From contig JBHLQH010000026.1 of the NCBI GenBank assembly GCA_048884965.1, forward strand, positions 1 to 47,045: a DNA stretch of 47,045 nucleotides, written 5' to 3'. The notes below the pieces were generated by a model, which was not told where the DNA came from, did not search any database, and saw nothing but the letters and a program-made list of their open reading frames with translations. Of this stretch, positions 11,527-47,045 are shown in pieces. The position numbers and the translations under genes were made by a program. Numbering within the stretch: position 1 is the stretch's first letter; every line of letters starts with the position of its first letter. Source of the DNA: Candidatus Thorarchaeota archaeon (lineage in GTDB: Archaea > Asgardarchaeota > Thorarchaeia > Thorarchaeales > Thorarchaeaceae).

Positions 11527-13164
11527 ATGAGTCAACAGATACCTGTCGTCGTCTTGAGAGAAGACGCGGAGAGAACACGTGGCCGTGATGCTCAAAGAAA
11601 CAACATCATGGCAGCCATCGTCATCGCTGAAGCAGTCAAATCAGCATTAGGTCCAAAAGGAATGGACAAGATGCTCGTTGACAGCTTTGGAGATGTGACT
11701 GTTAGCAACGATGGTGCTACTATACTAAAAGAGATGGACGTAGCCCATCCAGCTGCAAAGATGGTCATTGAGGTAGCAAAGACGGTTGACGCAGAAGTGG
11801 GGGACGGAACTACTACTGCAGCAGTCCTGACCGGAAACCTGCTAAAACAAGCAGATACCTTGCTGGACCAGAAAATACATCCAACTACCATCATCAGTGG
11901 GTACAGAAAGGCAACTGAAAGGGCTTTGAAGGTTATTGATGACGTCGCTGAAAAAATCGATCCAGCAGATGCATCATTCAAGAAAGTGCTACTGGATGTA
12001 GCAATGACCTCAATGTCGAGCAAGTTCGTTTCGGACTCAAAGGAAGAACTAGCTAAGGTTGTGGTAGACGCTGTCTTGGCCGTTGCAAAGGAACGCGCAG
12101 GTGATGAGGATATCGATATGGAGAACATCCCTCGTCAAAAGCAGAAAGGAATGCCTGTCACAAGAACCGAACTTGTGAGGGGTATCGTTCTCGACAAGGA
12201 GATAGTTCATCCTGCAATGCCAAAGAAGATCGAAGGCGCAAAAATTGCTCTTCTTGAAGCACCAATCGAAATCACCAAAACCGAGTTCGATGCAAAGATC
12301 GCCATTTCAAATCCAGCGGCTATGCAGAATTTCCTAGATGAAGAGGAACGAATGCTTCGCAGCTTGACTGATAAGATTATCCAGTCAGGAGCCAATGTTG
12401 TCATCGCCCAGAAAGGAATTGATGATGTTGCACAGCATTTCCTAGCAAAGGCTGGTATTCTAGCTGTTCGTAGAATAAAGAAGTCTGATGTCGAACGTCT
12501 TCACAAGGCAACTGGTGCTGCAATCGTTTCAAAGATTCAGAACCTTACCAGTGCAGACCTTGGTAAGGCGAAGCTCGTTGAGCAACGCCAGATTGGAGAG
12601 GATAAGATGCTCTTCGTTGAAGGTACTCCGAAATCATCAGTGGTTACACTCCTTGTAAGAGGAGGGACAGATCACATCGTTGATGAAGTCGATAGAGCTC
12701 TAAACGATGCACTCTACGTCGTGCGAGATGTAGTCATTCATCCTCATATCACCTATGGCGGTGGTGCTCTAGCAAGCGAGATCGCGAAAGAACTAAGAGA
12801 CTACTCATCAAAGCTTGAAGGAAGAGAGCAATACGCAGTCAACTCCTTTGCTGAGGCAATCGAGGGACTTCCAGCTACTCTTGCTGAGAATGCTGGTCTT
12901 GATCCTATTGACATTATGGTGGATCTAAGGACAGCCCATGCAGATGGCAAAGTCACCTTCGGTGTCGACCTAGGAAAAGGTAAAGTAGGAGACATGAAGA
13001 GTGCTCATGTTGTCGAGTCAGCACTTGTCAACAAGCAAATCGTTATGTCTGCTGCAGAAGCTGCTCAGATGATCCTCAAGATCGATGATGTCATTAGCTC
13101 GAAGGGTTCAGGTGCAGGCGGTGGAATGCCTGGTGGTCCTGAAGGCGATATGGACGACGAATAG
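11527..13164 (+). CDS. ths: Thermosome (group II chaperonin) subunit
   Basis: LGPKGMDKML, NDGATIL, GDGTTT, GIVLDKE, YGGGA and a C-terminal Gly/Met-rich tail; GGAGG RBS. Confidence 0.98.
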   Translation: MSQQIPVVVLREDAERTRGRDAQRNNIMAAIVIAEAVKSALGPKGMDKMLVDSFGDVTVSNDGATILKEMDVAHPAAKMVIEVAKTVDAEVGDGTTTAAVLTGNLLKQADTLLDQKIHPTTIISGYRKATERALKVIDDVAEKIDPADASFKKVLLDVAMTSMSSKFVSDSKEELAKVVVDAVLAVAKERAGDEDIDMENIPRQKQKGMPVTRTELVRGIVLDKEIVHPAMPKKIEGAKIALLEAPIEITKTEFDAKIAISNPAAMQNFLDEEERMLRSLTDKIIQSGANVVIAQKGIDDVAQHFLAKAGILAVRRIKKSDVERLHKATGAAIVSKIQNLTSADLGKAKLVEQRQIGEDKMLFVEGTPKSSVVTLLVRGGTDHIVDEVDRALNDALYVVRDVVIHPHITYGGGALASEIAKELRDYSSKLEGREQYAVNSFAEAIEGLPATLAENAGLDPIDIMVDLRTAHADGKVTFGVDLGKGKVGDMKSAHVVESALVNKQIVMSAAEAAQMILKIDDVISSKGSGAGGGMPGGPEGDMDDE

Positions 13165-30730: not shown

Positions 30731-31785
30731 TGGTCGAGATTCAAATCAATAATCTTTGGAAGCGATTCCCAGATGGCACTTGCATTGGTCCCATCGAGTT
30801 CCAAGTAGAGGATGGAGAAATGATTGCTCTTCTTGGACCAAGTGGATCCGGAAAGACAACAACGCTCAGGATGGTTGCAGGATTCATTAAACCTGACAAA
30901 GGCAGGATCTTGTTCAATAAGGAAGATGTTACCTATTTACCTCCGAATGAAAGACGAATCGGGATGGTCGTACAATCTGTGGCACTTTTTCCAAATATGA
31001 ATGTCTTTCAGAACATTGCATTTGGATTAGATGTTAGGAACTGGATTCAAGAAGAGGTCATTCATCGTGTAGAAGAGCTGGCAGACATGCTTGGAATAAG
31101 GAATCTTCTACATAGGAGAATCAATGCCATCAGCGGAGGAGAAGGGCAAAGGGTTGCTTTGGCAAGAGCATTAGCACCTAATCCCGAACTATTGCTCTTA
31201 GATGAGCCTCTCTCAGCTCTAGATCCCAATCTGAGGGAGAATCTTCAGAACGAGATTAGAAAGATCCAGCAGGAACTTGAGATTTCCACTATCTATGTTA
31301 CACACAATCAAGAAGAAGCCTTTGCTATCGCAGATAGAATAGCAATCCTTGAAAATGGGATTGTTAGCCAGATTGGTTCACCTTCCGACCTATACGATAG
31401 GCCTAGAAACAAGTTTGTGGCATCATTCATTGGTAGAGGGAGTACAGTAGAAGCAGTCGTTACACAACGAGATGGTAATAGGATTGAGGTAGAAATCGGG
31501 GACCAGAGAATCTGGATTAGTGGAAATGAGGTAGTACACAAGCACCTTTCCATTTCAATCAAGCCTGAAGATATCTCGATTTCAAAAAGCAAATCAGGCG
31601 CAATCACAGGGGAGGTGCAATCAGTCACCCCTCAACCTGGAAGGTACAGAGTACAACTTGAAGTTGGGCGACAAACTCTCTACACCTATGTCTCAAGCAA
31701 TACATTGCCTGATTCGATCAAACCCGGAAACACTATCTACATATTAATAGACCCTGATGAGGTCACGATTCTTTCAGAATCCTAA
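30730..31785 (+). CDS. thiQ: Thiamine ABC transporter ATPase (with TOBE domain)
   Basis: GPSGSGKT, ISGGEGQR, LLLDEP, VTH; TAATG coupling to thiP. Confidence 0.9.
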   Translation: MVEIQINNLWKRFPDGTCIGPIEFQVEDGEMIALLGPSGSGKTTTLRMVAGFIKPDKGRILFNKEDVTYLPPNERRIGMVVQSVALFPNMNVFQNIAFGLDVRNWIQEEVIHRVEELADMLGIRNLLHRRINAISGGEGQRVALARALAPNPELLLLDEPLSALDPNLRENLQNEIRKIQQELEISTIYVTHNQEEAFAIADRIAILENGIVSQIGSPSDLYDRPRNKFVASFIGRGSTVEAVVTQRDGNRIEVEIGDQRIWISGNEVVHKHLSISIKPEDISISKSKSGAITGEVQSVTPQPGRYRVQLEVGRQTLYTYVSSNTLPDSIKPGNTIYILIDPDEVTILSES

Positions 31786-31788
31786 GGG

Positions 31789-33525
31789 TTATGGAAGATA
31801 GTCCTCCAGTTCCCTTAAGATCCGCTCCTTGGTCCTGACAACATTGGCACCTTTGCTCTCCACGATAAGATCCTCAATCACTCCATTCTTTCGATCATAG
31901 CTGAGTGTGACAGTGGCCTCTTGATCCATGTCCTGATCAGAAAACAGATAGTGAGTTCTAACCATCTCACTACCCTCTTGTACTTCTTCATCTACGGAGA
32001 TGACTGTTTTTGAATTCAAGTAGGCTTCTACATTAGCGGGATTGCACCTAATGTTGAGCGTATGTCGAATCATGTGTTCCTTCTCAATACGACCACCGAG
32101 ATAGTCCATTGATTTCTTTAAACCAACGACAATCACGAGCCAGAGCAATATTGCACTAATGAAGAAAACGAGAGGATACTCCATTGAGAGTGAAGCTAGT
32201 GGAGTAGTATACTCTCCTGTGAATGCAATGACAATATCAAACGCTATTGTACCCGACAACACCAGTTGGATGACATCCAGAACATCTCCGGTCCTCTCAC
32301 TTGCCTTAATCACCTCACTTGTGTTCCGAGTATTATCGCGCAGAGCGCTGTATACACGGCGCATCTGCTGTTCAATCTGAGTAGATAGCAATGTTTGGAG
32401 ACCCTCTACTTCACTCTTTATGCTGTTCAGTACCAGCTCGATATCCCTTATCCGATCGATTAATGACTCCAACCCTCTATCAATTCCAATCAGATTTCTA
32501 AGGCTTGAATCGACTTGGTCCTTAACAAGATTCCACCTATCAGAAATCAATCGGAACCCACGTTCTAAATAACCCCCAGTTGAGCCCAGGATGGTATAAT
32601 TAGCAGTTGCCTCAGTTAGAATATTCTGTGCTTTGGTAATTACTGTATAATCACCCTCAGAAGTCTTCTCGATGTAGGTTCGTGCTTGATTTAGCTCATC
32701 ACTCAGAAGCGACATCCTGTTGAACAAACCATCAACGAAAATCTCGGAACTTCGAAGAAGAGAATAGAATGTGATTAGCGTTTCATACCGCATCCATTCT
32801 GGGGAAACGATAAGAATACCACCAGCTCCTAAGAATAGGAAGCTATCCTTCTCAGAAAGAGGTTCAGCAAGCTGGATATTGTCGATGATCTGTTCAAGCT
32901 CATTTTGATATTCCTCGCCATCAATATAGCTAGCGACATCGCTAAAGACCGGAGCCATTGAAGATGCCATCAGTCCAATGAACTTGTATCTGCTGTTAGG
33001 AGTTCCTTTGAAAATGCAATCAAGGATGCGGCGTTGGTGATGGGTCAACAAGGTGTCCATGAGTAGAGAAGAATCATTCATCATATCAGCGATTATTCGT
33101 GCAAGATGATCAAGTGACGCACTTGGATTTTCCGTGATTGGTTTATCATAGATGGCTGTGATCTCACAACCGTATACCATGTGCCCTTCGTGCGTGATAT
33201 GCATTCCAATTACTTCTTTCTGCTCTACTTCGTCGCTCGGGTCTTGCATTGAGGCTTCGCAGGAAATTGATTCAGATGCGTTCGACTCAATGATACGAAC
33301 TGAGTTACATCTTCTCTCTGATGTGAAAGTTGTGCTCTCTGGCCATGCATCCATTAGCATCGTAACAAACTCACCATGCATGGTACGCTTTGACATCAGC
33401 TTTTGATTGATTGCCTCAAGGGTGTTTCGATCACATGGCAGGTATTCACTAAGAATGAGCCGAACTCCTCCTAGCAGGATAGACTCTTGCAGCTGATCTT
33501 TGATATGAGGATCATCAGTCACCAA
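31789..33525 (-). CDS. Hypothetical protein: large soluble domain, long helices, two TMs, C-terminal domain (CorA-like topology)
   Basis: 578-aa ORF; coiled-coil LIDRIRDIELVLNSIKSEVEGLQTLL...; two hydrophobic helices near the C-terminus; GGAGG RBS. Confidence 0.75.
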   Translation of the reverse strand: MVTDDPHIKDQLQESILLGGVRLILSEYLPCDRNTLEAINQKLMSKRTMHGEFVTMLMDAWPESTTFTSERRCNSVRIIESNASESISCEASMQDPSDEVEQKEVIGMHITHEGHMVYGCEITAIYDKPITENPSASLDHLARIIADMMNDSSLLMDTLLTHHQRRILDCIFKGTPNSRYKFIGLMASSMAPVFSDVASYIDGEEYQNELEQIIDNIQLAEPLSEKDSFLFLGAGGILIVSPEWMRYETLITFYSLLRSSEIFVDGLFNRMSLLSDELNQARTYIEKTSEGDYTVITKAQNILTEATANYTILGSTGGYLERGFRLISDRWNLVKDQVDSSLRNLIGIDRGLESLIDRIRDIELVLNSIKSEVEGLQTLLSTQIEQQMRRVYSALRDNTRNTSEVIKASERTGDVLDVIQLVLSGTIAFDIVIAFTGEYTTPLASLSMEYPLVFFISAILLWLVIVVGLKKSMDYLGGRIEKEHMIRHTLNIRCNPANVEAYLNSKTVISVDEEVQEGSEMVRTHYLFSDQDMDQEATVTLSYDRKNGVIEDLIVESKGANVVRTKERILRELEDYLP

Positions 33526-34300: not shown

Positions 34301-35257
34301 ATGGTTATCGGCTACGAGGTTTCTGAAGACGGAACACTGCAAGAGGTAGAGTTGACAAAGGACGGACTAGACTCAACCAAGGTCGTCTGTGTTGTCGACG
34401 ATGAAACAAAGAGTATCTACCTGTGGAAAGGAGTCCAAGCAGGCGTTCGCAAGAAGTTTATTGGAGCACGAGTTGCGACCAATCTTAGAACTGAATACGG
34501 ATTTCACTTTAAAGTGAGGCCGCTTGATGAAGGTGAAGAACCTCCAACCTTCTTCACTGCGTTGGATGGGAGCACTGCCGCGACTCGAGTAATGAAGCCA
34601 GGCGATAAGGCACCACCTCCAACACCGCCAAGTGCGGCTGCATCAGACACTGCAGCAGAACCTGAAGTTGAACATGTCAAGACCGAAGTAGTCCGTAAGG
34701 AACCAGAGGTCAAGACCACAACTCCACCCACCACGCCGAAGGTTTCTACCAAACCTCCAACTCCACCCGTTACAACAACCTCAACTACTCCTACCTCAAC
34801 AAGGCCAGTCACCTCGAGACCCGCAGCTACAACCTCTGCTCCTATATCGCAGGACATACTGAGTGATATGCTGAAGGAACTTGAGCAAGAAGAGCCACCT
34901 GAGGGATACCAGAGAGAATTACTAATCGTATACAATGAGATATACACAGTCGCGGAACATAAGATATCGGTCTTCGGTCAAGAAAAGGTCGAACGCAAGT
35001 TCGAGAAAGTCAAGGATCCACCTGAAGGAACGTTTATGGCTGAAGGATTCATACCGCGAGTTATTGTTAAAGATGGAAGGGTCTTGGGCATTGAACTACT
35101 CAAAGGTACGCCAGATGCTATTCTAAGCCCAATCAAAGCAGAGATGAAAGAGAGATTGGGAGACCTCATCAGCTTCTTTAGATCTGAAGTCGAGGAAGAT
35201 GAAATAAAAGAAGGAAAGAAGAAACAAGATGCAAAGAGAAAACTTGTCGCTAAATAG
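34301..35257 (+). CDS. Asgard gelsolin-domain protein (1DGelX-like: gelsolin domain, Pro/Thr linker, domain X)
   Basis: LDSTKVVCVVD...IYLWKG..AGVRKKFIGARVA...DEGEEPPTFF is a gelsolin repeat; followed by a low-complexity linker and a PEGYQRE-containing C-domain. Confidence 0.85.
   Translation: MVIGYEVSEDGTLQEVELTKDGLDSTKVVCVVDDETKSIYLWKGVQAGVRKKFIGARVATNLRTEYGFHFKVRPLDEGEEPPTFFTALDGSTAATRVMKPGDKAPPPTPPSAAASDTAAEPEVEHVKTEVVRKEPEVKTTTPPTTPKVSTKPPTPPVTTTSTTPTSTRPVTSRPAATTSAPISQDILSDMLKELEQEEPPEGYQRELLIVYNEIYTVAEHKISVFGQEKVERKFEKVKDPPEGTFMAEGFIPRVIVKDGRVLGIELLKGTPDAILSPIKAEMKERLGDLISFFRSEVEEDEIKEGKKKQDAKRKLVAK
34595..34849 (+). repeat. Pro/Thr-rich low-complexity linker in the gelsolin protein
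   Basis: APPPTPP...TTTPPTTPKVSTKPPTPPVTTTSTTPTSTRP. Confidence 0.8.
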
Positions 35258-41362: not shown

Positions 41363-42562
41363 ATGAAACTCAATATCACTCCTGGTGCAGCAAACCTTCA
41401 GTACGCTATACGAGACATCGTAGTAGCAGCAAAGAGCTATGAGAAACGAACTGGTGAGAAACCGCTCTATCTGAATATTGGAGACCCTATCCAATACGAT
41501 TGGAAGACTCCTGATTTCATGGTAGAGGCGATGTGCAAGGCAACAAAGGATGGTTGGAATGGCTATTCACCATCAGACGGTGAACCAGAACTCCGACAAG
41601 CTGCGGCTGAGAAAGAGAAACGGGTCAATGGAATAGACATCGATCCAAGTCGAATGATCGTAACAGCAGGGGTTTCAGAGGCAATCCTATTTCTTACTGG
41701 AGCTCTGGTTAGCCCTGGCTCTGAATTCCTCCTTCCAGGACCTTCGTACCCACCTTACATAAGCTATGTGAAGTTCTTCGGAGGGGTCCCGGTCACCTAT
41801 CGAACCATTGAGGAGGACGACTGGAACCCGGATCCAGAAGACCTTCGAAACAAGATATCTGACAAGACTGTGGCCATCCTAGTCATAAACCCCAACAATC
41901 CAACTGGTTCAGTCTATAACGAGAAGACACTGCGCGAGATTGTTGACATTGCAGGAGAATATGGACTTCCACTGATCTCAGATGAGATCTACGATCAGCT
42001 CACCTACGATGAAGCACAAACACCCATGGTAAAGATTGCGGGGGATGTCCCTGTCATTGGGTTCAACGGTGTGAGCAAGGTCTACCTTGCACCAGGATGG
42101 AGGGTTGGCTATGCATACTTCCATGACCAGAATGGAGAACTCAACCCACTGTATGATGCGATGATGCGACAGGCACGAGTGAGAATCTGTTTGAATGCAA
42201 CTGCACAGATCGCCTCAGTTGCAGCACTGAGAAGTGATGGAAGTCACTTGAAAGAAACAATGAGCAGATTACGAGAAAGGCGTGACCTAATTCACAAGCG
42301 ATTGAATGATATCGAATCAATCTCTACAAGACTGCCTGAAGCAGCGTTCTACATCATGCCAAAGATAGAGCTTCGAAATAGGTGGAAGGATGATACCGAG
42401 TTTGTCAAGGATGTGCTCAATGAAACAGGTGTTGTCTTTGTCCCGGGTTCAGGTTTCTGTCCAATCTACGGTGCAAGCCACTTTAGAAGTGTCTTCTTGC
42501 CGCCTCCAGATATGATAGATGAGGCAATGAATAGACTAGAGTCATTCATGGCGAAACGGTAG
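41363..42562 (+). CDS. Class I/II PLP aminotransferase (alanine aminotransferase AlaA-like)
   Basis: YAIRD, LNIGDP, INPNNPTG, SDEIYD, SKVYLAPGWRVG, VPGSGF, HFRSVFLP. Confidence 0.93.
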   Translation: MKLNITPGAANLQYAIRDIVVAAKSYEKRTGEKPLYLNIGDPIQYDWKTPDFMVEAMCKATKDGWNGYSPSDGEPELRQAAAEKEKRVNGIDIDPSRMIVTAGVSEAILFLTGALVSPGSEFLLPGPSYPPYISYVKFFGGVPVTYRTIEEDDWNPDPEDLRNKISDKTVAILVINPNNPTGSVYNEKTLREIVDIAGEYGLPLISDEIYDQLTYDEAQTPMVKIAGDVPVIGFNGVSKVYLAPGWRVGYAYFHDQNGELNPLYDAMMRQARVRICLNATAQIASVAALRSDGSHLKETMSRLRERRDLIHKRLNDIESISTRLPEAAFYIMPKIELRNRWKDDTEFVKDVLNETGVVFVPGSGFCPIYGASHFRSVFLPPPDMIDEAMNRLESFMAKR

Positions 42563-42581
42563 AGTAGCTATTCTTCTGATA

Positions 42582-42609
42582 TCCCGCGGATTCTGAATAC
42601 ACCGCGGGA
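42582..42609. terminator. GC-rich hairpin between convergent genes
   Basis: TCCCGCGG-(12 nt)-CCGCGGGA. Confidence 0.45.
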
Positions 42610-42705
42610 CTATCTCTCACTTTCTCAAGCTCGATATTGACTGGGAGGTCACAACCATCGTGATTCTTAGTAGATACTCCAGTACTTGAGAATTCTTTTT
42701 CAAAC

Positions 42706-44571
42706 CTAAAGTTCGTCAAGCTTGTTGTCAAAGGATTTTAGAAGTTTTTCACGAACAGAATCGATTGCCCCTTTTGCCTTTGTTATCTCAGGATGCTCAG
42801 CTGGCCGATGAGCACTTGTCAAAGCATCGGCAGATGCAATACTTTCAATGTCAGACCTCAGAGCACTTAGAGAGGACTTCAGCCCATCCATAGCGGTTCT
42901 AACCTTGGTCCGGGTCTCTGCAAGCTGGATATTGTCACTTGCAGACGCCATTGGTATAGAATCATATGTAGATTCCAAGTCATGGATTACTGCTGATACT
43001 TTGTCTTTTAGAGCGGCTATATTGCTTTGGATCTTCTTTCTTCTAGATTCCGTTTCTTCCCACTTTTGAAGCAGGGTGGTATTCTCAGATTCTAAGGTTC
43101 GAGTACGAACGTCAAGAAGGTCAACACTTGATCTCTTCAATGACTCAAGGATTCCCCTAGCGTACTCCTTCTTCTCTGCGGTACGCTTCTGAGTGATCTT
43201 CGTTTGTAATTCTTCATCACCTAGAAGTCGGTCAATGGTGTCAATCAATGAATTTACAATGGCTATTCGTGCTTTCGCTGAAGCCAATTCCTTCTTACCT
43301 ATATCTGCACGTGCAGTGTTTAGAGAGGATTCAAGTGATGATGCAATCTGAAGCAAAGGATCCGATTCTAATTCGGAGGCATCAATCGAGGGATACAAAA
43401 TACTGACTCGTCCTTCGGTGACATCCACATCTTGAAGCAGCTTCTCGGTTTCTTTGAAATCCTTCAGAACAAAAGTTCCTGGGCCTGCCTGCAGAGTATA
43501 TTCAGTCTTCAGGTCATCAGCATAGGACCCTTTTAGAACAACAGAGAATTCCTTCACGCCCATCATATCTTCAGCTGATTGTGCTGTCACCACAAAGAAT
43601 CTGGTTTCGCCAGGGGGAATCGTTCCCACCTTGGTTTTGATATCTCCGGAATGAATTTTCAATCCGTCATCCAGATGCCATTCAACAACAACATTACTTG
43701 CTGGGCCATCACCCTTGTTTTCGACAACTGCGCGGATCTCAAATTGCTCCTTGAATGTCATATCAATGGGAAGCTCAAGTTGAGAGGATATCTTTGGAAC
43801 CTTTAGTTTGCCACGGAGAATTTCTCGGACCATCTCCACGCCTTTATCAACATATGTAGCGAATTCCTGTGCCTTCGCTCCTGCAAGTGCAGCCTTCAAT
43901 TCAGTCGCTGCAGCTGTTTCAGCGTCTGCGAAGGCATTAAGATCCATTGAGTTGATGGCACTCTCAAGCATTTGCGGAATTTGACTGAGTCGAACGACTC
44001 CAGGAAATCTCAAACGTGAGGCATTCTCAGCCGCGTAACGTCGTGCTCTTGAAAACGCTTCATTCTCCTTCCCAATCATCAAGTAAATCATACTACCAGT
44101 TATCGCAAGGGCTGTGCCATTTTTAGTTTCAGCGTCCTCATTCCACATCAAATGCTCGGTGGAGGCACCAAACAAATCATCTGCACCTTGCTCGTAGGCC
44201 TTTAGCGCGTTCTCAACATCTGACAGTTCAGAGTAGACATCACCAGCTAAGCACATATTCAATGAAGCGGCTTTGTAGCTCTTTGATGCACGGTACTCAT
44301 TTGCTGCTTTCCAGAAGTTCTCAGCAGCTTGCTTTTGTAATTTTTCAACATTCGCATAGTCTCCTTTCATCTCACTGGCTCTTGCAGCCTCAAGGAATTT
44401 GTGACCGGCTTCAGTGAAAGATTGCTTCATAGCTTCCTTGGTTGCTTCTTCAACCATACGTCTGATGTCTTCTTCTGACATGAGATTCTTCTCCTCTCTG
44501 ACTAATTGCCTATGAGTGACTCTGGTTTTCTCTTTTTCGCCTTCAGGTGATGACTGTGGGAGGGTCACCAA
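42706..44571 (-). CDS. Multidomain protein: alpha-SNAP/TPR-like solenoid, CARDB/Ig-like domain, helical bundle/coiled coil (alternative start ATG 44481)
   Basis: aa ~50-250 Ala-rich helical repeats (AAENFWKAANEYRASKSYKAA); aa ~258-370 FEIRAVVENKGDGPASNV...GTIPPGET Ig/CARDB signature; aa ~372-621 heptad-rich helices. Confidence 0.8.
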   Translation of the reverse strand: MVTLPQSSPEGEKEKTRVTHRQLVREEKNLMSEEDIRRMVEEATKEAMKQSFTEAGHKFLEAARASEMKGDYANVEKLQKQAAENFWKAANEYRASKSYKAASLNMCLAGDVYSELSDVENALKAYEQGADDLFGASTEHLMWNEDAETKNGTALAITGSMIYLMIGKENEAFSRARRYAAENASRLRFPGVVRLSQIPQMLESAINSMDLNAFADAETAAATELKAALAGAKAQEFATYVDKGVEMVREILRGKLKVPKISSQLELPIDMTFKEQFEIRAVVENKGDGPASNVVVEWHLDDGLKIHSGDIKTKVGTIPPGETRFFVVTAQSAEDMMGVKEFSVVLKGSYADDLKTEYTLQAGPGTFVLKDFKETEKLLQDVDVTEGRVSILYPSIDASELESDPLLQIASSLESSLNTARADIGKKELASAKARIAIVNSLIDTIDRLLGDEELQTKITQKRTAEKKEYARGILESLKRSSVDLLDVRTRTLESENTTLLQKWEETESRRKKIQSNIAALKDKVSAVIHDLESTYDSIPMASASDNIQLAETRTKVRTAMDGLKSSLSALRSDIESIASADALTSAHRPAEHPEITKAKGAIDSVREKLLKSFDNKLDEL

Positions 44572-44577
44572 CTGAGG

Positions 44578-44868
44578 CTAGTAGACCTCACGCGGGGAAT
44601 GTTTCAGTCTATCTGGAAGACTGCCACCATGTCCCTCAATTACAAGCTCATATCCTCTACCCCAAGTGGCTCCACTTTTACTTTTGAAACCAGCTTTTGA
44701 TATTCCTCTGGCAGCTCTTTCAGCAGACCTTCTTTGAATCATACTGACACCACCCGGAACGCTCAGAATGAGCTTTTTCTGTGACTCATCTACTTTCAGA
44801 GTAATCTCAGAGGCAGGTTGTCCCTTGACCTCGTGAAATTGACTATCGCGATATTCTAGAAACGTCAT
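44578..44868 (-). CDS. Small hypothetical protein, possibly a divergent single gelsolin/ADF-like domain
   Basis: 96 aa; the pattern LKVDE..KKLIL......SMIQRRSAERAARGI parallels the gelsolin domain at 34301. Confidence 0.7.
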   Translation of the reverse strand: MTFLEYRDSQFHEVKGQPASEITLKVDESQKKLILSVPGGVSMIQRRSAERAARGISKAGFKSKSGATWGRGYELVIEGHGGSLPDRLKHSPREVY

Positions 44869-44957
44869 CTAATCAGACCCTTCCCTAATCCAATATTATG
44901 AAAAAAGTGTCATGGCTGCATATTAGCATTTGGCCGATGAAGTGATACCATTGTGTC

Positions 44958-45015
44958 AAAGAAAAAGAATAGAGTTGTGAGTCAAATGGTCCCTGATGAG
45001 ATCACTGACTCACGA
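44958..45015 (-). terminator. Hairpin plus U-tract terminator (minus strand)
   Basis: GTGAGTCA (44977) ... TGACTCAC (45013) stem followed on the minus strand by CTCTATTCTTTTTCTTT. Confidence 0.55.
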
Positions 45016-45038
45016 TTTTGAAATAAATCCCAATAGTA

Positions 45039-45314
45039 TTAGTCTGGCGGTGGAGGTGGAGGAGGTGTGTCGTCCAACTTAGTACTGACTGGTGTAAGAA
45101 CCGAGTCACGCTTCTTCTTTGTGAAGAAGAATCCACAAACCACAAAAACAACACCCAACACTGCTAGCACAGCACCAATAATGGTGTCATATCCGGCTAC
45201 GACAGTGATGTTCATCGTTGGCAACAAGACAAAGACTGCGCCTACGATGATCAGAATTACGCCTAGACATATTGGTCCAGAACGAACATATTCTCGCCAC
45301 GTTAGATAGGACAT
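45039..45314 (-). CDS. Two-TM membrane protein with C-terminal poly-proline tail
   Basis: Start at ATG 45314 (GGGAG RBS); two TMs, KKKR, then DDTPPPPPPPD*. Confidence 0.75.
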   Translation of the reverse strand: MSYLTWREYVRSGPICLGVILIIVGAVFVLLPTMNITVVAGYDTIIGAVLAVLGVVFVVCGFFFTKKKRDSVLTPVSTKLDDTPPPPPPPD

Positions 45315-45416
45315 TTTGAGATCTCCCTGACCGATACGGAAAACAATCCGTTCAGTACACTTCCACACCATGTGCTGGGAGTGATTTAAGATTATTGCGC
45401 GAGCATCAAGTGGGCT

Positions 45417-46274
45417 TTACTCTATGGACATTGTCACAATGCAGCCAGTAGATGATGTGTTAACACCGATTTTCAAATCGGTGACCTGTGAGACTTTCTG
45501 TGCTAGAATTTCATGAAATGCACAGGGATATCCTGCAGGCATCCGGTTGCCATTTGGATCAATCTTGCGAGCCATCTTCAAGAGCTCACAACCTTGCGTT
45601 TCTACCGACACATTCAAGGTGCCGGTTTTTGGAAGTTGACTATCGCCCGAACAGCTGTAAATAAGCTCTCCGAAGCGTATTGGAAGAATAATTGGATCTT
45701 CTGGGTCAATCCACATATGAACAAGTTCATTTGCGAGCTGCTCAAACATCGCAGTCAGATGTCCACTGGGAAGAGTGGCAGCATATACCGCGAGCTCACA
45801 GATTGTAGTGCCATGAGCTTCCGCAATCACTTTCCATGCATTCTTACCAGCTTGTGGAGTAACGGTGGGTAAGTGACCTACGGGAGCATGAGGTAGTTCC
45901 TTGGTGTCACTTGTGACGACCGTGCTTTCTTCCGAGGACGAACCCACTTCAATATATGATTCACCATCGTCATAGTAGAGATCGGGCACTTCATAATTTG
46001 GAGAGATCCCAGATGTCTGATATTGCCGTGAGAATTGCATCAAGCGACCAGCGCACATCGCCACCGCATGTCGACTCAATCCTTCAACCCTAATGTGACC
46101 ATAGATAACTCCAACAAAATTATCGAGACTCAGTTCGGTCATAGTCTTTTCAGCAAGAATCTTCTTGCCCCTAATCACACGACAAGCCCACATTTCATCC
46201 ATGACGCCAGCCTGAGCAGAGTAGCTTGTATTGGTAATCATGACCGTAGGAGATATTGGGTAGAATCCAGACAT
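45417..46274 (-). CDS. Hypothetical two-domain protein with C-terminal V4R/H-NOX-clan-like domain
   Basis: C-terminal VSVETQGCELL...YPCAFH...GCIVTM three-Cys pattern; unknown N-terminal domain; low-complexity linker. Confidence 0.7.
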   Translation of the reverse strand: MSGFYPISPTVMITNTSYSAQAGVMDEMWACRVIRGKKILAEKTMTELSLDNFVGVIYGHIRVEGLSRHAVAMCAGRLMQFSRQYQTSGISPNYEVPDLYYDDGESYIEVGSSSEESTVVTSDTKELPHAPVGHLPTVTPQAGKNAWKVIAEAHGTTICELAVYAATLPSGHLTAMFEQLANELVHMWIDPEDPIILPIRFGELIYSCSGDSQLPKTGTLNVSVETQGCELLKMARKIDPNGNRMPAGYPCAFHEILAQKVSQVTDLKIGVNTSSTGCIVTMSIE

Positions 46275-46347
46275 TGGTTTGCCTCACTAACTAGCCACAC
46301 CTTTCTCTCCCTGAAAAGCATATCGCCAACGTAGTTGAATATCAATC

Positions 46348-47045
46348 TTAGTGCATCTTGATCTTCATCGTGATGATGGAATGCGGGTCAACAGGTAATG
46401 ATACTGAATCCGAGCTCACCATTAATTCACCAATCTCATTACCAATGAAGTCTACAAGAATAGCACTATCAACAACTCGACGGAATTTCAGAGTACTTGT
46501 CCCTGAACATCCCTTAATCTCATAAAGACGTACGATGTACTCTGAATCCTTTTCGCTGGGCCTAAAGCATGAGAGCTCCAATTCAGCGCCTTCAATTACC
46601 AGTGCTGGTAATACATTGTCATTGCTAGGGATGAAATTGGCATCAAGTGGAAAAGCAATCAGAGGTAAGCGGTGCTCATCCGATCTTCTATGCACCATGC
46701 CAGATTTCCAATCAGATTTGTGTGGTAGCAGAGATATCCTGAAAGAATGCTCGCCGTGCTCTCGCGCAGTCTTTGCTTCCATAACCTCATCATCTCTGCC
46801 ATGAGATAGCTGTGTTGGACTTCTAAGAAAAGTCAAACCAAACTCTCCATCTTCATACTGGAATTCGTGAATACCAATCGCAGAAACGCCCAATCCATAT
46901 TCAGGACTCCTGCAATCAACCCAATCCAAAGCAGAGAAGATACCGTGTCCATGGTCCTCAAAGGAAGACAATTCGGAATGCATAACATGCTTCTCTTCCA
47001 CCATGAATTGAGAACCTGTAGAAACATGATTCGAGTAGATAGGGA
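46348..47045 (-). CDS. Alpha-mannosidase (GH38), C-terminal part; ORF extends past the window end
   Basis: The frame is open to the window edge (PIYSNHVSTGSQFMVEE...). WVD, LTFLRSP, GEHSFRISLLPH..DW, IVRLYE and VDFIG are GH38 C-domain motifs. Confidence 0.85.
   Translation of the reverse strand, partial: PIYSNHVSTGSQFMVEEKHVMHSELSSFEDHGHGIFSALDWVDCRSPEYGLGVSAIGIHEFQYEDGEFGLTFLRSPTQLSHGRDDEVMEAKTAREHGEHSFRISLLPHKSDWKSGMVHRRSDEHRLPLIAFPLDANFIPSNDNVLPALVIEGAELELSCFRPSEKDSEYIVRLYEIKGCSGTSTLKFRRVVDSAILVDFIGNEIGELMVSSDSVSLPVDPHSIITMKIKMH

Follow-up and report, generated by a model that had tools for sequence, protein, structure and literature searches.

An Asgard archaeal protein with a TPR-like helical head that resembles SNAP repeats weakly and locally: a predicted cytoplasmic scaffold

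We analysed a 47,045-nucleotide stretch of DNA, hereafter the window, from a Candidatus Thorarchaeota archaeon (assembly GCA_048884965.1, contig JBHLQH010000026.1, positions 1 to 47,045 of the forward strand), in which a minus-strand gene near the right end encodes a protein of 591 amino acids (aa). The protein consists of an 11-helix TPR-like head (aa 1-228), an immunoglobulin-like (Ig) sandwich (aa 229-343) and about 250 aa of further helices. The head resembles the repeats of SNAPs, the adaptors of eukaryotic membrane trafficking, weakly and locally, and the protein is not a proven SNAP ancestor. The coding sequence and the parts of its product are as follows.

42706..44481, minus strand: coding sequence of the 591-aa protein (stop codon 42706-42708, start ATG 44481)
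43798..44481, minus strand: N-terminal helical solenoid, aa 1-228, 11 antiparallel helices, TPR-like, the most conserved part of the protein (AlphaFold2, AF2, model)
44173..44337, minus strand: SNAP-type repeat unit, aa 49-103, including the segment aa 50-86 singled out in a preliminary description of this DNA (profile matches to alpha-SNAP repeats)
43453..43797, minus strand: Ig-like beta-sandwich, aa 229-343, of CARDB/TRAP-beta/MG type (AF2 strands, Pfam and Foldseek)
42709..43452, minus strand: C-terminal helical region, aa 344-591, six helices, one of them of 85 residues (423-507) (AF2 model)

An open reading frame (ORF) does span 42706..44571 on the minus strand, as the preliminary description had it, and a TTG start at 44571 would give a protein of 621 aa. 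We rejected this start in favour of the internal ATG at 44481, because full-length homologues (585-595 aa) have their N-terminus (MSEED or MSDE) at that position, a GGAG Shine-Dalgarno box lies 8-10 nt before it in eight of eight loci of Thorarchaeia (hereafter Thor), and the frames of relatives stay open for only 1-20 codons upstream. The 30 codons after the TTG are accordingly read as non-coding; the spacer outside the GGAG box is unconserved, and an Rfam scan of 42000-47045 returned no match.

The full-length AF2 model, built with 26 homologues, had a mean predicted local distance difference test (pLDDT) value of 86 and placed helices at residues 3-225, eight strands at 231-340 and six helices at 344-590, the tail helices with pLDDT 80-92. 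Folded alone, with distant homologues included, the head reached pLDDT 94 and a predicted TM-score of 0.89. It is a TPR-like stack (clan CL0020) of 11 helices with hairpin connectivity and small residues at the packing positions, where the invariant residues A52, A60, K67, A72, A79 and A92 sit, and all TPR models of Pfam stayed below their own cut-offs in the window protein and its homologues alike. A conserved LKVPK linker joins the head directly to the Ig sandwich. Mean pairwise identity declines along the chain: the head has 64%, the Ig domain 53%, the first three tail helices 50% and the rest of the tail 29%. No catalytic Pfam family was matched by the protein or its homologues, and no transmembrane segment was found (maximum 19-residue Kyte-Doolittle mean 0.83). 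The tail had been described as heptad helices without a transmembrane segment; the helices and the missing membrane segment hold, and a crude Fourier test showed no evident heptad periodicity.

Searched singly against the PDB with phmmer, the protein found alpha-SNAP in first rank, with a gapless alignment of aa 50-86 that was not significant (E 0.56). The same gapless alignment had been drawn in the preliminary description against an alpha-SNAP string; that string is correct, and phmmer prints the identical alignment, with only this E value when it stands alone. Most residues shared with alpha-SNAP are small or aromatic ones at packing positions, which the family keeps invariant (A52, A60, K67, A72, A79), and distant members do not conserve the more distinctive shared residues N61 and C77. 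A head profile, built from the N-terminal domain with seven distant relatives included, matched alpha-SNAP in the PDB at E 4e-5, Sec17 at 1.7e-4 and a consensus TPR at 3e-4, followed by weaker matches to MIT domains (E at least 0.02) and gamma-SNAP (0.1). The SNAP signal is seen only with this N-domain profile that includes distant homologues and not with the full-length profile, which returned only non-significant coiled-coil matches from the PDB (syntaxin-1A Habc at E 0.19, SNAP at E 7).

Comparison with the TPR proteins of the same genome sharpens the likeness. In hhalign, the head aligned to eight vertebrate SNAPs with 76.7% probability (E 2.1e-5, 83 columns) and to single SNAPs with 68-77%, against 0.2-17% for most TPR ORFs of its own genome; two ORFs of contig C15 of that genome reached 68% and 36%. 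When a hidden Markov model (HMM) of the head was run over the ORFs of the genome with SNAPs added, the SNAPs scored 23.5-31.4 bits, the ORF C15:65241-67043 scored 26 bits and every other TPR protein at most 17 bits. Because both the head HMM and hhalign favour SNAPs over nearly all TPR proteins of the same genome, the head is, on the evidence of its profiles, not an average TPR, and its repeats belong to a SNAP-like subclass of TPR-like hairpins. The possibility raised at the outset that the head would score no better to SNAPs than to generic TPRs is thus not what was found.

The Pfam SNAP model (PF14938, cut-off 25 bits) draws the limits of this likeness. The window protein missed the cut-off, with 12.5 bits (E 0.16) at 44185-44343, and hmmscan of the protein at E<=10 gave no PF14938 match. 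Within its own genome it ranked 12th of 15 on this model, outscored by ordinary TPR ORFs with 26-35 bits; 10 of 14 control prokaryotes likewise give matches to the model. At E<=1, PF14938 was matched by 22 of the 26 homologues; among eight homologues scanned singly, only P0037 passed the cut-off (33 bits, positions 22-104 of 282), with P0030 at 24.3 bits. The model positions that are matched differ by homologue (22-104, 63-143, 81-183, 95-148 and 104-163), aa 49-103 align to three successive alpha-SNAP repeats (38-89, 98-151 and 139-193), and no collinear match over the SNAP domain of about 282 positions was found. Given that the registers are inconsistent and that one stretch fits three SNAP repeats, the SNAP match behaves as a common repeat type and not as a collinear orthologous domain.

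Several TPR ORFs elsewhere in the genome score above the window protein on PF14938. These include a 601-aa ORF at C15:65241-67043 on the plus strand (L017:925-2727; 37.9 bits) and, on the same contig, the ORFs at 11626-12522 (minus strand) and 30891-31835 (plus strand). One 299-aa TPR ORF, of SNAP-like size, reaches 36 bits summed over its PF14938 matches. The C15 TPR ORFs may be members of the "putative SNAP" clusters that Eme et al. (2023) listed.

SNAPs rank first not only in the sequence profile search but also in Foldseek and VIA-align. With the head model, Foldseek ranks 1-13 were all Sec17 chains (E 8.6e-4 to 4e-3), at TM-scores of 0.27-0.36 and a root-mean-square deviation (rmsd) of 12-15 Å. 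Exhaustive VIA-align placed gamma-SNAP first (Z 12.3, rmsd 7.5 Å, 184 residues) and then Sec17 (Z 11.9), with designed helical repeats directly behind the SNAPs at Z 10.8-11.0. When the full model was re-aligned, Sec17 reached Z 12.2-12.7 (rmsd 3.6-3.8 Å, about 160 residues) and a designed repeat Z 12.2, values to be read with the tool's own caution that unrelated helical repeats commonly give structural Z values below about 13. The superpositions fall into three registers, residues 8-227 on Sec17 111-289, 9-183 on alpha-SNAP 0-158 and 1-220 on gamma-SNAP 49-275, and an atlas fold search with the head gave a best TM-score of 0.39. The predicted structure allows a SNAP relationship without establishing one.

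The SNAP domain is a nine-helix twisted sheet with a C-terminal globular bundle, and alpha-SNAP uses the free C-terminus of its helical domain to contact NSF and stimulate it. The head studied here is internal: it ends at aa 228 and runs into the Ig sandwich, leaving no free C-terminal end. The hydrophobic membrane loop of alpha-SNAP sequences (as in FFSGLFGG) has no counterpart, the first inter-helix turn reading KQSFTEAG. A search for the SNARE domain (PF05739) in the same genome gave a best score of 15.8 bits, which is on a par with control prokaryotes and under the cut-off of 26.8. A Cdc48 is encoded in the genome, 4.7 kb upstream of the gene. According to a 2026 preprint (10.64898/2026.10.19.760048), SNARE-like genes are confined to Heimdallarchaeia, with none in Thorarchaeia, and the SNARE-like complexes of Heimdallarchaeia resist murine NSF.

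The Ig domain is a CARDB/E-set Ig sandwich, as had been proposed from the sequence, with eight strands in the AF2 model (231-340) and a motif N-x-G-x-G-x-A (N255, G257, G259, A261) that is invariant in the family. In Pfam, CARDB matched 15 of the 26 homologues; one distant homologue passed the CARDB cut-off (24.9 vs 22.7 bits), P0096 reached 22.1 bits, and the Ig domain of the window protein itself matched DUF11 alone (15.9 bits). The sandwich superposed on the luminal domain of TRAP-beta with Z 14.5 (rmsd 1.8 Å, 112 residues), and the Foldseek E value of the domain was 3.8e-6.

The tail gave generic matches. Its profile found apolipoprotein A-I as best PDB match (E 0.0055), followed by other helical bundles, and in Pfam its matches were scattered over 167 mostly coiled-coil families, all under cut-offs. 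The SNARE/Habc-like character once ascribed to it was not recognised by the family models: the Syntaxin model appeared in 3 of 22 homologues and STX6_N in 6 of 22, with best E values of 0.0017-0.0027, again under every cut-off and of a generic coiled-coil kind.

The family was matched in 30 of 41 close and distant related genomes. Across the phylum, a profile of head plus Ig domain found a single collinear copy in about 88 of 201 sampled genomes; its presence is near-universal among genomes of the Thor family (34 of 43) and of several other families, and some families gave no match. Among 1.84 billion representative proteins, about 55 collinear clusters were detected, the remaining strong matches being multi-CARDB surface proteins in which the Ig domain alone aligned. 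The named members, taken from the first homologue search and two samples of ten clusters, are all Asgard (Thor, Wukong, Heimdall, Hod, i.e., Hodarchaeales, Odin, Baldr, Loki and Hermod), which is not the picture of an architecture common in non-Asgard prokaryotes, which was part of the outcome that the preliminary description had named as fatal to its proposal. Distant members keep the head and the Ig domain, and their tails vary in length, giving totals of 437-700 aa. In genomes of family f9 (e.g., G197:C5:46558-46788), we observed a distinct family of 436-460 aa proteins that shares the Ig domain alone (E ~1e-11); this type of protein occurs in many genomes without the collinear family.

Upstream of the gene, the right end of the window holds four further genes on the same strand.

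44578..44868, minus strand: 96-aa basic protein, very conserved in Thorarchaeia and always the next gene upstream, about 100 bp away
45039..45371, minus strand: small membrane protein that has two hydrophobic helices and ends in a PPPPPPPD tail (sequence and synteny)
45417..46274, minus strand: 285-aa protein, first gene of a conserved four-gene block, its position conserved in Thor genomes
46348..47045, minus strand: GH38 alpha-mannosidase, C-terminal part, cut by the contig end (Pfam Glyco_hydro38C2)

In Thor genomes these genes are part of a co-directional string of FAD oxidoreductase, Cdc48, GH38 alpha-mannosidase, 285-aa protein, polyproline-tailed membrane protein, 96-aa protein and, last, the gene described here. 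The string is conserved in five other Thor genera, with a convergent aminotransferase beside the gene, and its Cdc48 carries CDC48_N, CDC48_2 and two AAA domains. In the present assembly the string is split: contig C96 carries GH38 aa 1-667 with cdc48 upstream (tblastn), and since it holds the rest of GH38 together with cdc48, it joins the right end of the window. The cdc48-GH38 pairing is conserved in six Thor genera, the present genome included. In eukaryotes, p97-dependent degradation of glycoproteins is followed by the action of a cytosolic mannosidase, a sequence of events that the pairing, by analogy, recalls. Neither cdc48 nor GH38 was present in the flanks of the loci of seven distant relatives.

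The 96-aa protein is 69-88% identical across Thor genera, above the conservation of its large neighbour; it had no Pfam relative, and its profile no PDB match. In a language-model search its neighbours were small archaeal clusters, and in one of these 28% of the members carry Gelsolin (score 0.94). A gelsolin identity was not confirmed, as PF00626 gave no match (E<=10) and hhalign returned 0.7% against the annotated gelsolin of the window and <1% against five gelsolin ORFs of the same genome. Over the whole genome, PF00626 at E<=10 gave six matches, all on other contigs; the contig of the window had none, the gene at 34301-35257 (plus strand) included. A complex prediction of the full protein with the 96-aa neighbour scored 0.00, which yields no verdict and counts neither way.

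The polyproline membrane protein likely starts at M20 (45314), giving 91 aa, and shows weak matches to the DUF308 and DUF3185 membrane repeats. Outside the Thor family it is the only neighbour to stay beside the gene, in one family of the order, with its tail kept (L009:1460-1720). Attached to a membrane anchor, such a tail could serve to recruit binders of the profilin type or of the SH3/WW type. For the 285-aa protein, Pfam gave no match (V4R included, at E<=0.01) and an atlas search nothing above 0.83.

We consider it probable that the product of the gene is a soluble, non-enzymatic scaffold or adaptor of the cytoplasm, specific to Asgard archaea. It has a repeat type in common with eukaryotic SNAPs but is not their orthologue, and SNAP kinship at the level of the repeat type is plausible. 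In such a scaffold, the groove of the solenoid and the Ig sandwich would bind protein or peptide partners, and the C-terminal helices would make up an elongated bundle serving to space the protein or to oligomerise it. In Thorarchaeia the scaffold would act with the 285-aa, polyproline-tailed and 96-aa proteins, probably at the cytoplasmic face of the membrane.

Several points weigh against this interpretation. Since helical repeats and Ig domains are promiscuous, "scaffold" is a weak and generic prediction, and with SNAPs ranking first in three kinds of search there is room for a kinship closer than that of a TPR-like scaffold. The gene block, moreover, is conserved only within the Thor family and order, where long-range synteny persists anyway; given that the entire 12-kb region is syntenic within the family, the linkage of the block, including that to cdc48, may reflect descent and not function.

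That closer kinship would make the protein a true SNAP relative, a sister or precursor of the eukaryotic SNAPs and an adaptor through which a Cdc48-type AAA+ ATPase reaches coiled-coil or helical-bundle substrates; these could be its own tail or the SNARE-like proteins in Heimdallarchaeia. We regard this as unlikely, even though SNAPs top the profile HMM, Foldseek and VIA-align searches, hhalign sets them far over most TPR proteins of the genome, and the homologue P0037 passes the Pfam SNAP cut-off. Also in its favour, six Thor genera, this genome among them, have cdc48 4.7 kb upstream of the gene in the same orientation, and family members are present in Heimdallarchaeia and Hodarchaeales, where the SNARE-like complexes that resist murine NSF occur (10.64898/2026.10.19.760048). 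However, the match covers at most 83 of 282 SNAP positions in inconsistent registers, generic TPR ORFs outscore the window protein on the SNAP model, and the structural Z values tie with those of designed repeats. The Ig domain after the head takes away the free C-terminal end that SNAPs use towards NSF, no SNARE domain stands above cut-off in the genome, and the mannosidase and three other genes lie between cdc48 and the gene, with cdc48 not near the gene in the seven distant relatives.

The "archaeal precursor of a trafficking adaptor" put forward in the preliminary description is therefore retained in part: the head is nearer to SNAP repeats than to nearly all TPRs of the same genome, SNAPs rank first and the named relatives are Asgard only, but the likeness is local with shifting registers, ties with designed repeats, stays at 12.5 against 25 bits on PF14938 and sits in an internal part of a protein whose genome has no SNARE above cut-off. 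In its full form, this line of thought would make the family the Asgard sister or forerunner of SNAPs, with a SNAP-type head coupling a Cdc48-like ATPase to helical-bundle substrates and the orthologues of Heimdallarchaeia and Hodarchaeales as the missing factor by which an archaeal Cdc48 disassembles the SNARE-like complexes that resist murine NSF; we find this quite improbable.

The order of an alpha-solenoid followed by a beta-sandwich could instead be that of a coat or adaptor protein, as in the large subunits of adaptins and COPI, where the sandwich would be an appendage that recruits cargo or accessory proteins to membranes. Foldseek aligned the full model over about 400 columns with INTS7 (E 4.5e-7) and with COPI large subunits (5a1u_E, E 2.5e-5; 5nzr_G) and also matched the appendage domains of gamma-COP, GGA and alpha-adaptin; the Ig domain is cytosolic, like appendages, and Asgard proteins with adaptin-appendage, TPR and Ig-like domains have been described (PMC10936438). 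This reading is very unlikely, given that the TM-scores were 0.10-0.17 at an rmsd of about 20 Å, none of these chains remained in the top 50 after re-alignment, the sandwich fits TRAP-beta and MG/CARDB domains better than appendages, and no adaptin Pfam family was matched. The kinship with TRAPP subunits and adaptins entertained earlier comes down to these low-TM Foldseek matches, and we do not uphold it.

A link to ESCRT, with the first three helices as an MIT-like bundle that binds ESCRT-III tails, is extremely improbable: the first 60 residues do superpose on the MIT domains of katanin, calpain-7, Vta1, VPS4A and MITD1 (rmsd 1.6-2.1 Å, Z 8.2-8.8), Pfam MIT (PF04212) matches weakly in 8 of 26 homologues (E>=0.012) and the head profile finds the Sulfolobus Vps4 MIT domain (E 0.021), but all of these fall below cut-offs (best MIT 17.2 vs 30 bits), designed three-helix binders superpose better (Z 9.4), the helices belong to a continuous solenoid, the gene lies away from the ESCRT genes of the genome (contig C42), and a search of the genome for the steadiness box (Vps23_core) gave no match in the gene.

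The main texts of the Liu et al. preprint and of Eme et al. (2023), both catalogues of Asgard eukaryotic signature proteins, of a 2026 structural-clustering preprint and of the ESCRT survey of Makarova et al. make no mention of SNAP. Supplementary file 7 of Eme et al. (2023; PMC10307638) lists four small "putative SNAP" clusters of 2-11 proteins, with a copy number of 0.34 in the Thor ancestor. Such a copy number disagrees with a near-universal Thor gene. Makarova et al. (2024; PMC10936438) described Asgard proteins of patchy distribution in which TPR and Ig-like domains occur together with ESCRT domains; the searches revealed no ESCRT domain in the protein described here.

SNAP and NSF are among the trafficking parts that are not known to have a convincing archaeal forerunner. 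A single-copy, Asgard-wide protein whose head is nearer to SNAP repeats than to ordinary TPRs is a concrete candidate for one, and it can be set against the archaeal Cdc48 and the newly described SNARE-like complexes of Heimdallarchaeia. The likelier outcome is that the SNAP link fails, in which case the family adds to the extended interaction proteins of Asgard archaea a conserved, undescribed scaffold, laid out as solenoid, cytosolic Ig domain and helical rod and, in Thorarchaeia, placed in a block with a polyproline-tailed membrane protein. Our results also indicate that prokaryotic PF14938 matches need careful reading, as the model matches in 10 of the 14 control genomes.

Among known systems, SNAPs (alpha-, beta- and gamma-SNAP and Sec17; PF14938; PDB 3j96, 9ojz, 1qqe, 9cru and 2ifu) share with the head an all-helical solenoid of antiparallel hairpins and the signature A-x-x-[YF]-x-x-A-A ... 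K-x-[YW]-x-x-A-A, and they are its best PDB matches (profile E 4e-5, Foldseek E 8.6e-4, VIA-align Z 12.3-12.7). They differ in that a single unit of about 55 aa matches, in several registers, at TM-scores of at most 0.36 and, for the window protein, under the Pfam cut-off. The protein is also twice the size of a SNAP, its head being internal and followed by the Ig domain and 250 aa of helices; an FFxxLF-type N-terminal loop is lacking, and so is a SNARE above cut-off in the genome. Generic TPR-like scaffolds (CTPR, LGN/Pins, Rap phosphatases, Get4 and designed repeats) have the same hairpin-stack fold and comparable scores (CTPR profile E 3e-4, designed repeats Z 10.8-12.2), whereas no canonical 34-residue TPR family reaches its Pfam cut-off in the head, and most TPR proteins of the same genome are far more distant from the head than SNAPs are.

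The "putative SNAP" clusters of Eme et al. (2023) are small and patchy, in contrast to a family that is near-universal in Thorarchaeia, and the proteins of Makarova et al. (2024) are set apart by domains of which neither, Vps28-C or the steadiness box, was found here; what both groups have in common with the present protein is that they are Asgard TPR-like proteins tagged as SNAP-like or trafficking-related from weak domain matches. Adaptin and COPI large subunits and INTS7 have a far longer solenoid and no family-level sequence signal in common with the protein, and the long local Foldseek alignments (E 4.5e-7 to 2.5e-5) at TM-scores of 0.10-0.17 reflect the same order of solenoid and then sandwich. 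The CARDB, TRAP-beta and macroglobulin Ig sandwiches are extracellular or luminal, whereas the sandwich here lies between two helical domains in a protein without signal peptide or transmembrane segment; they nevertheless have the same fold, the MG domains of C3 and alpha-2-macroglobulin superposing with Z 11-12, and the motif N-x-G-x-x-A is common to CARDB and to the Ig domain of this Asgard family.

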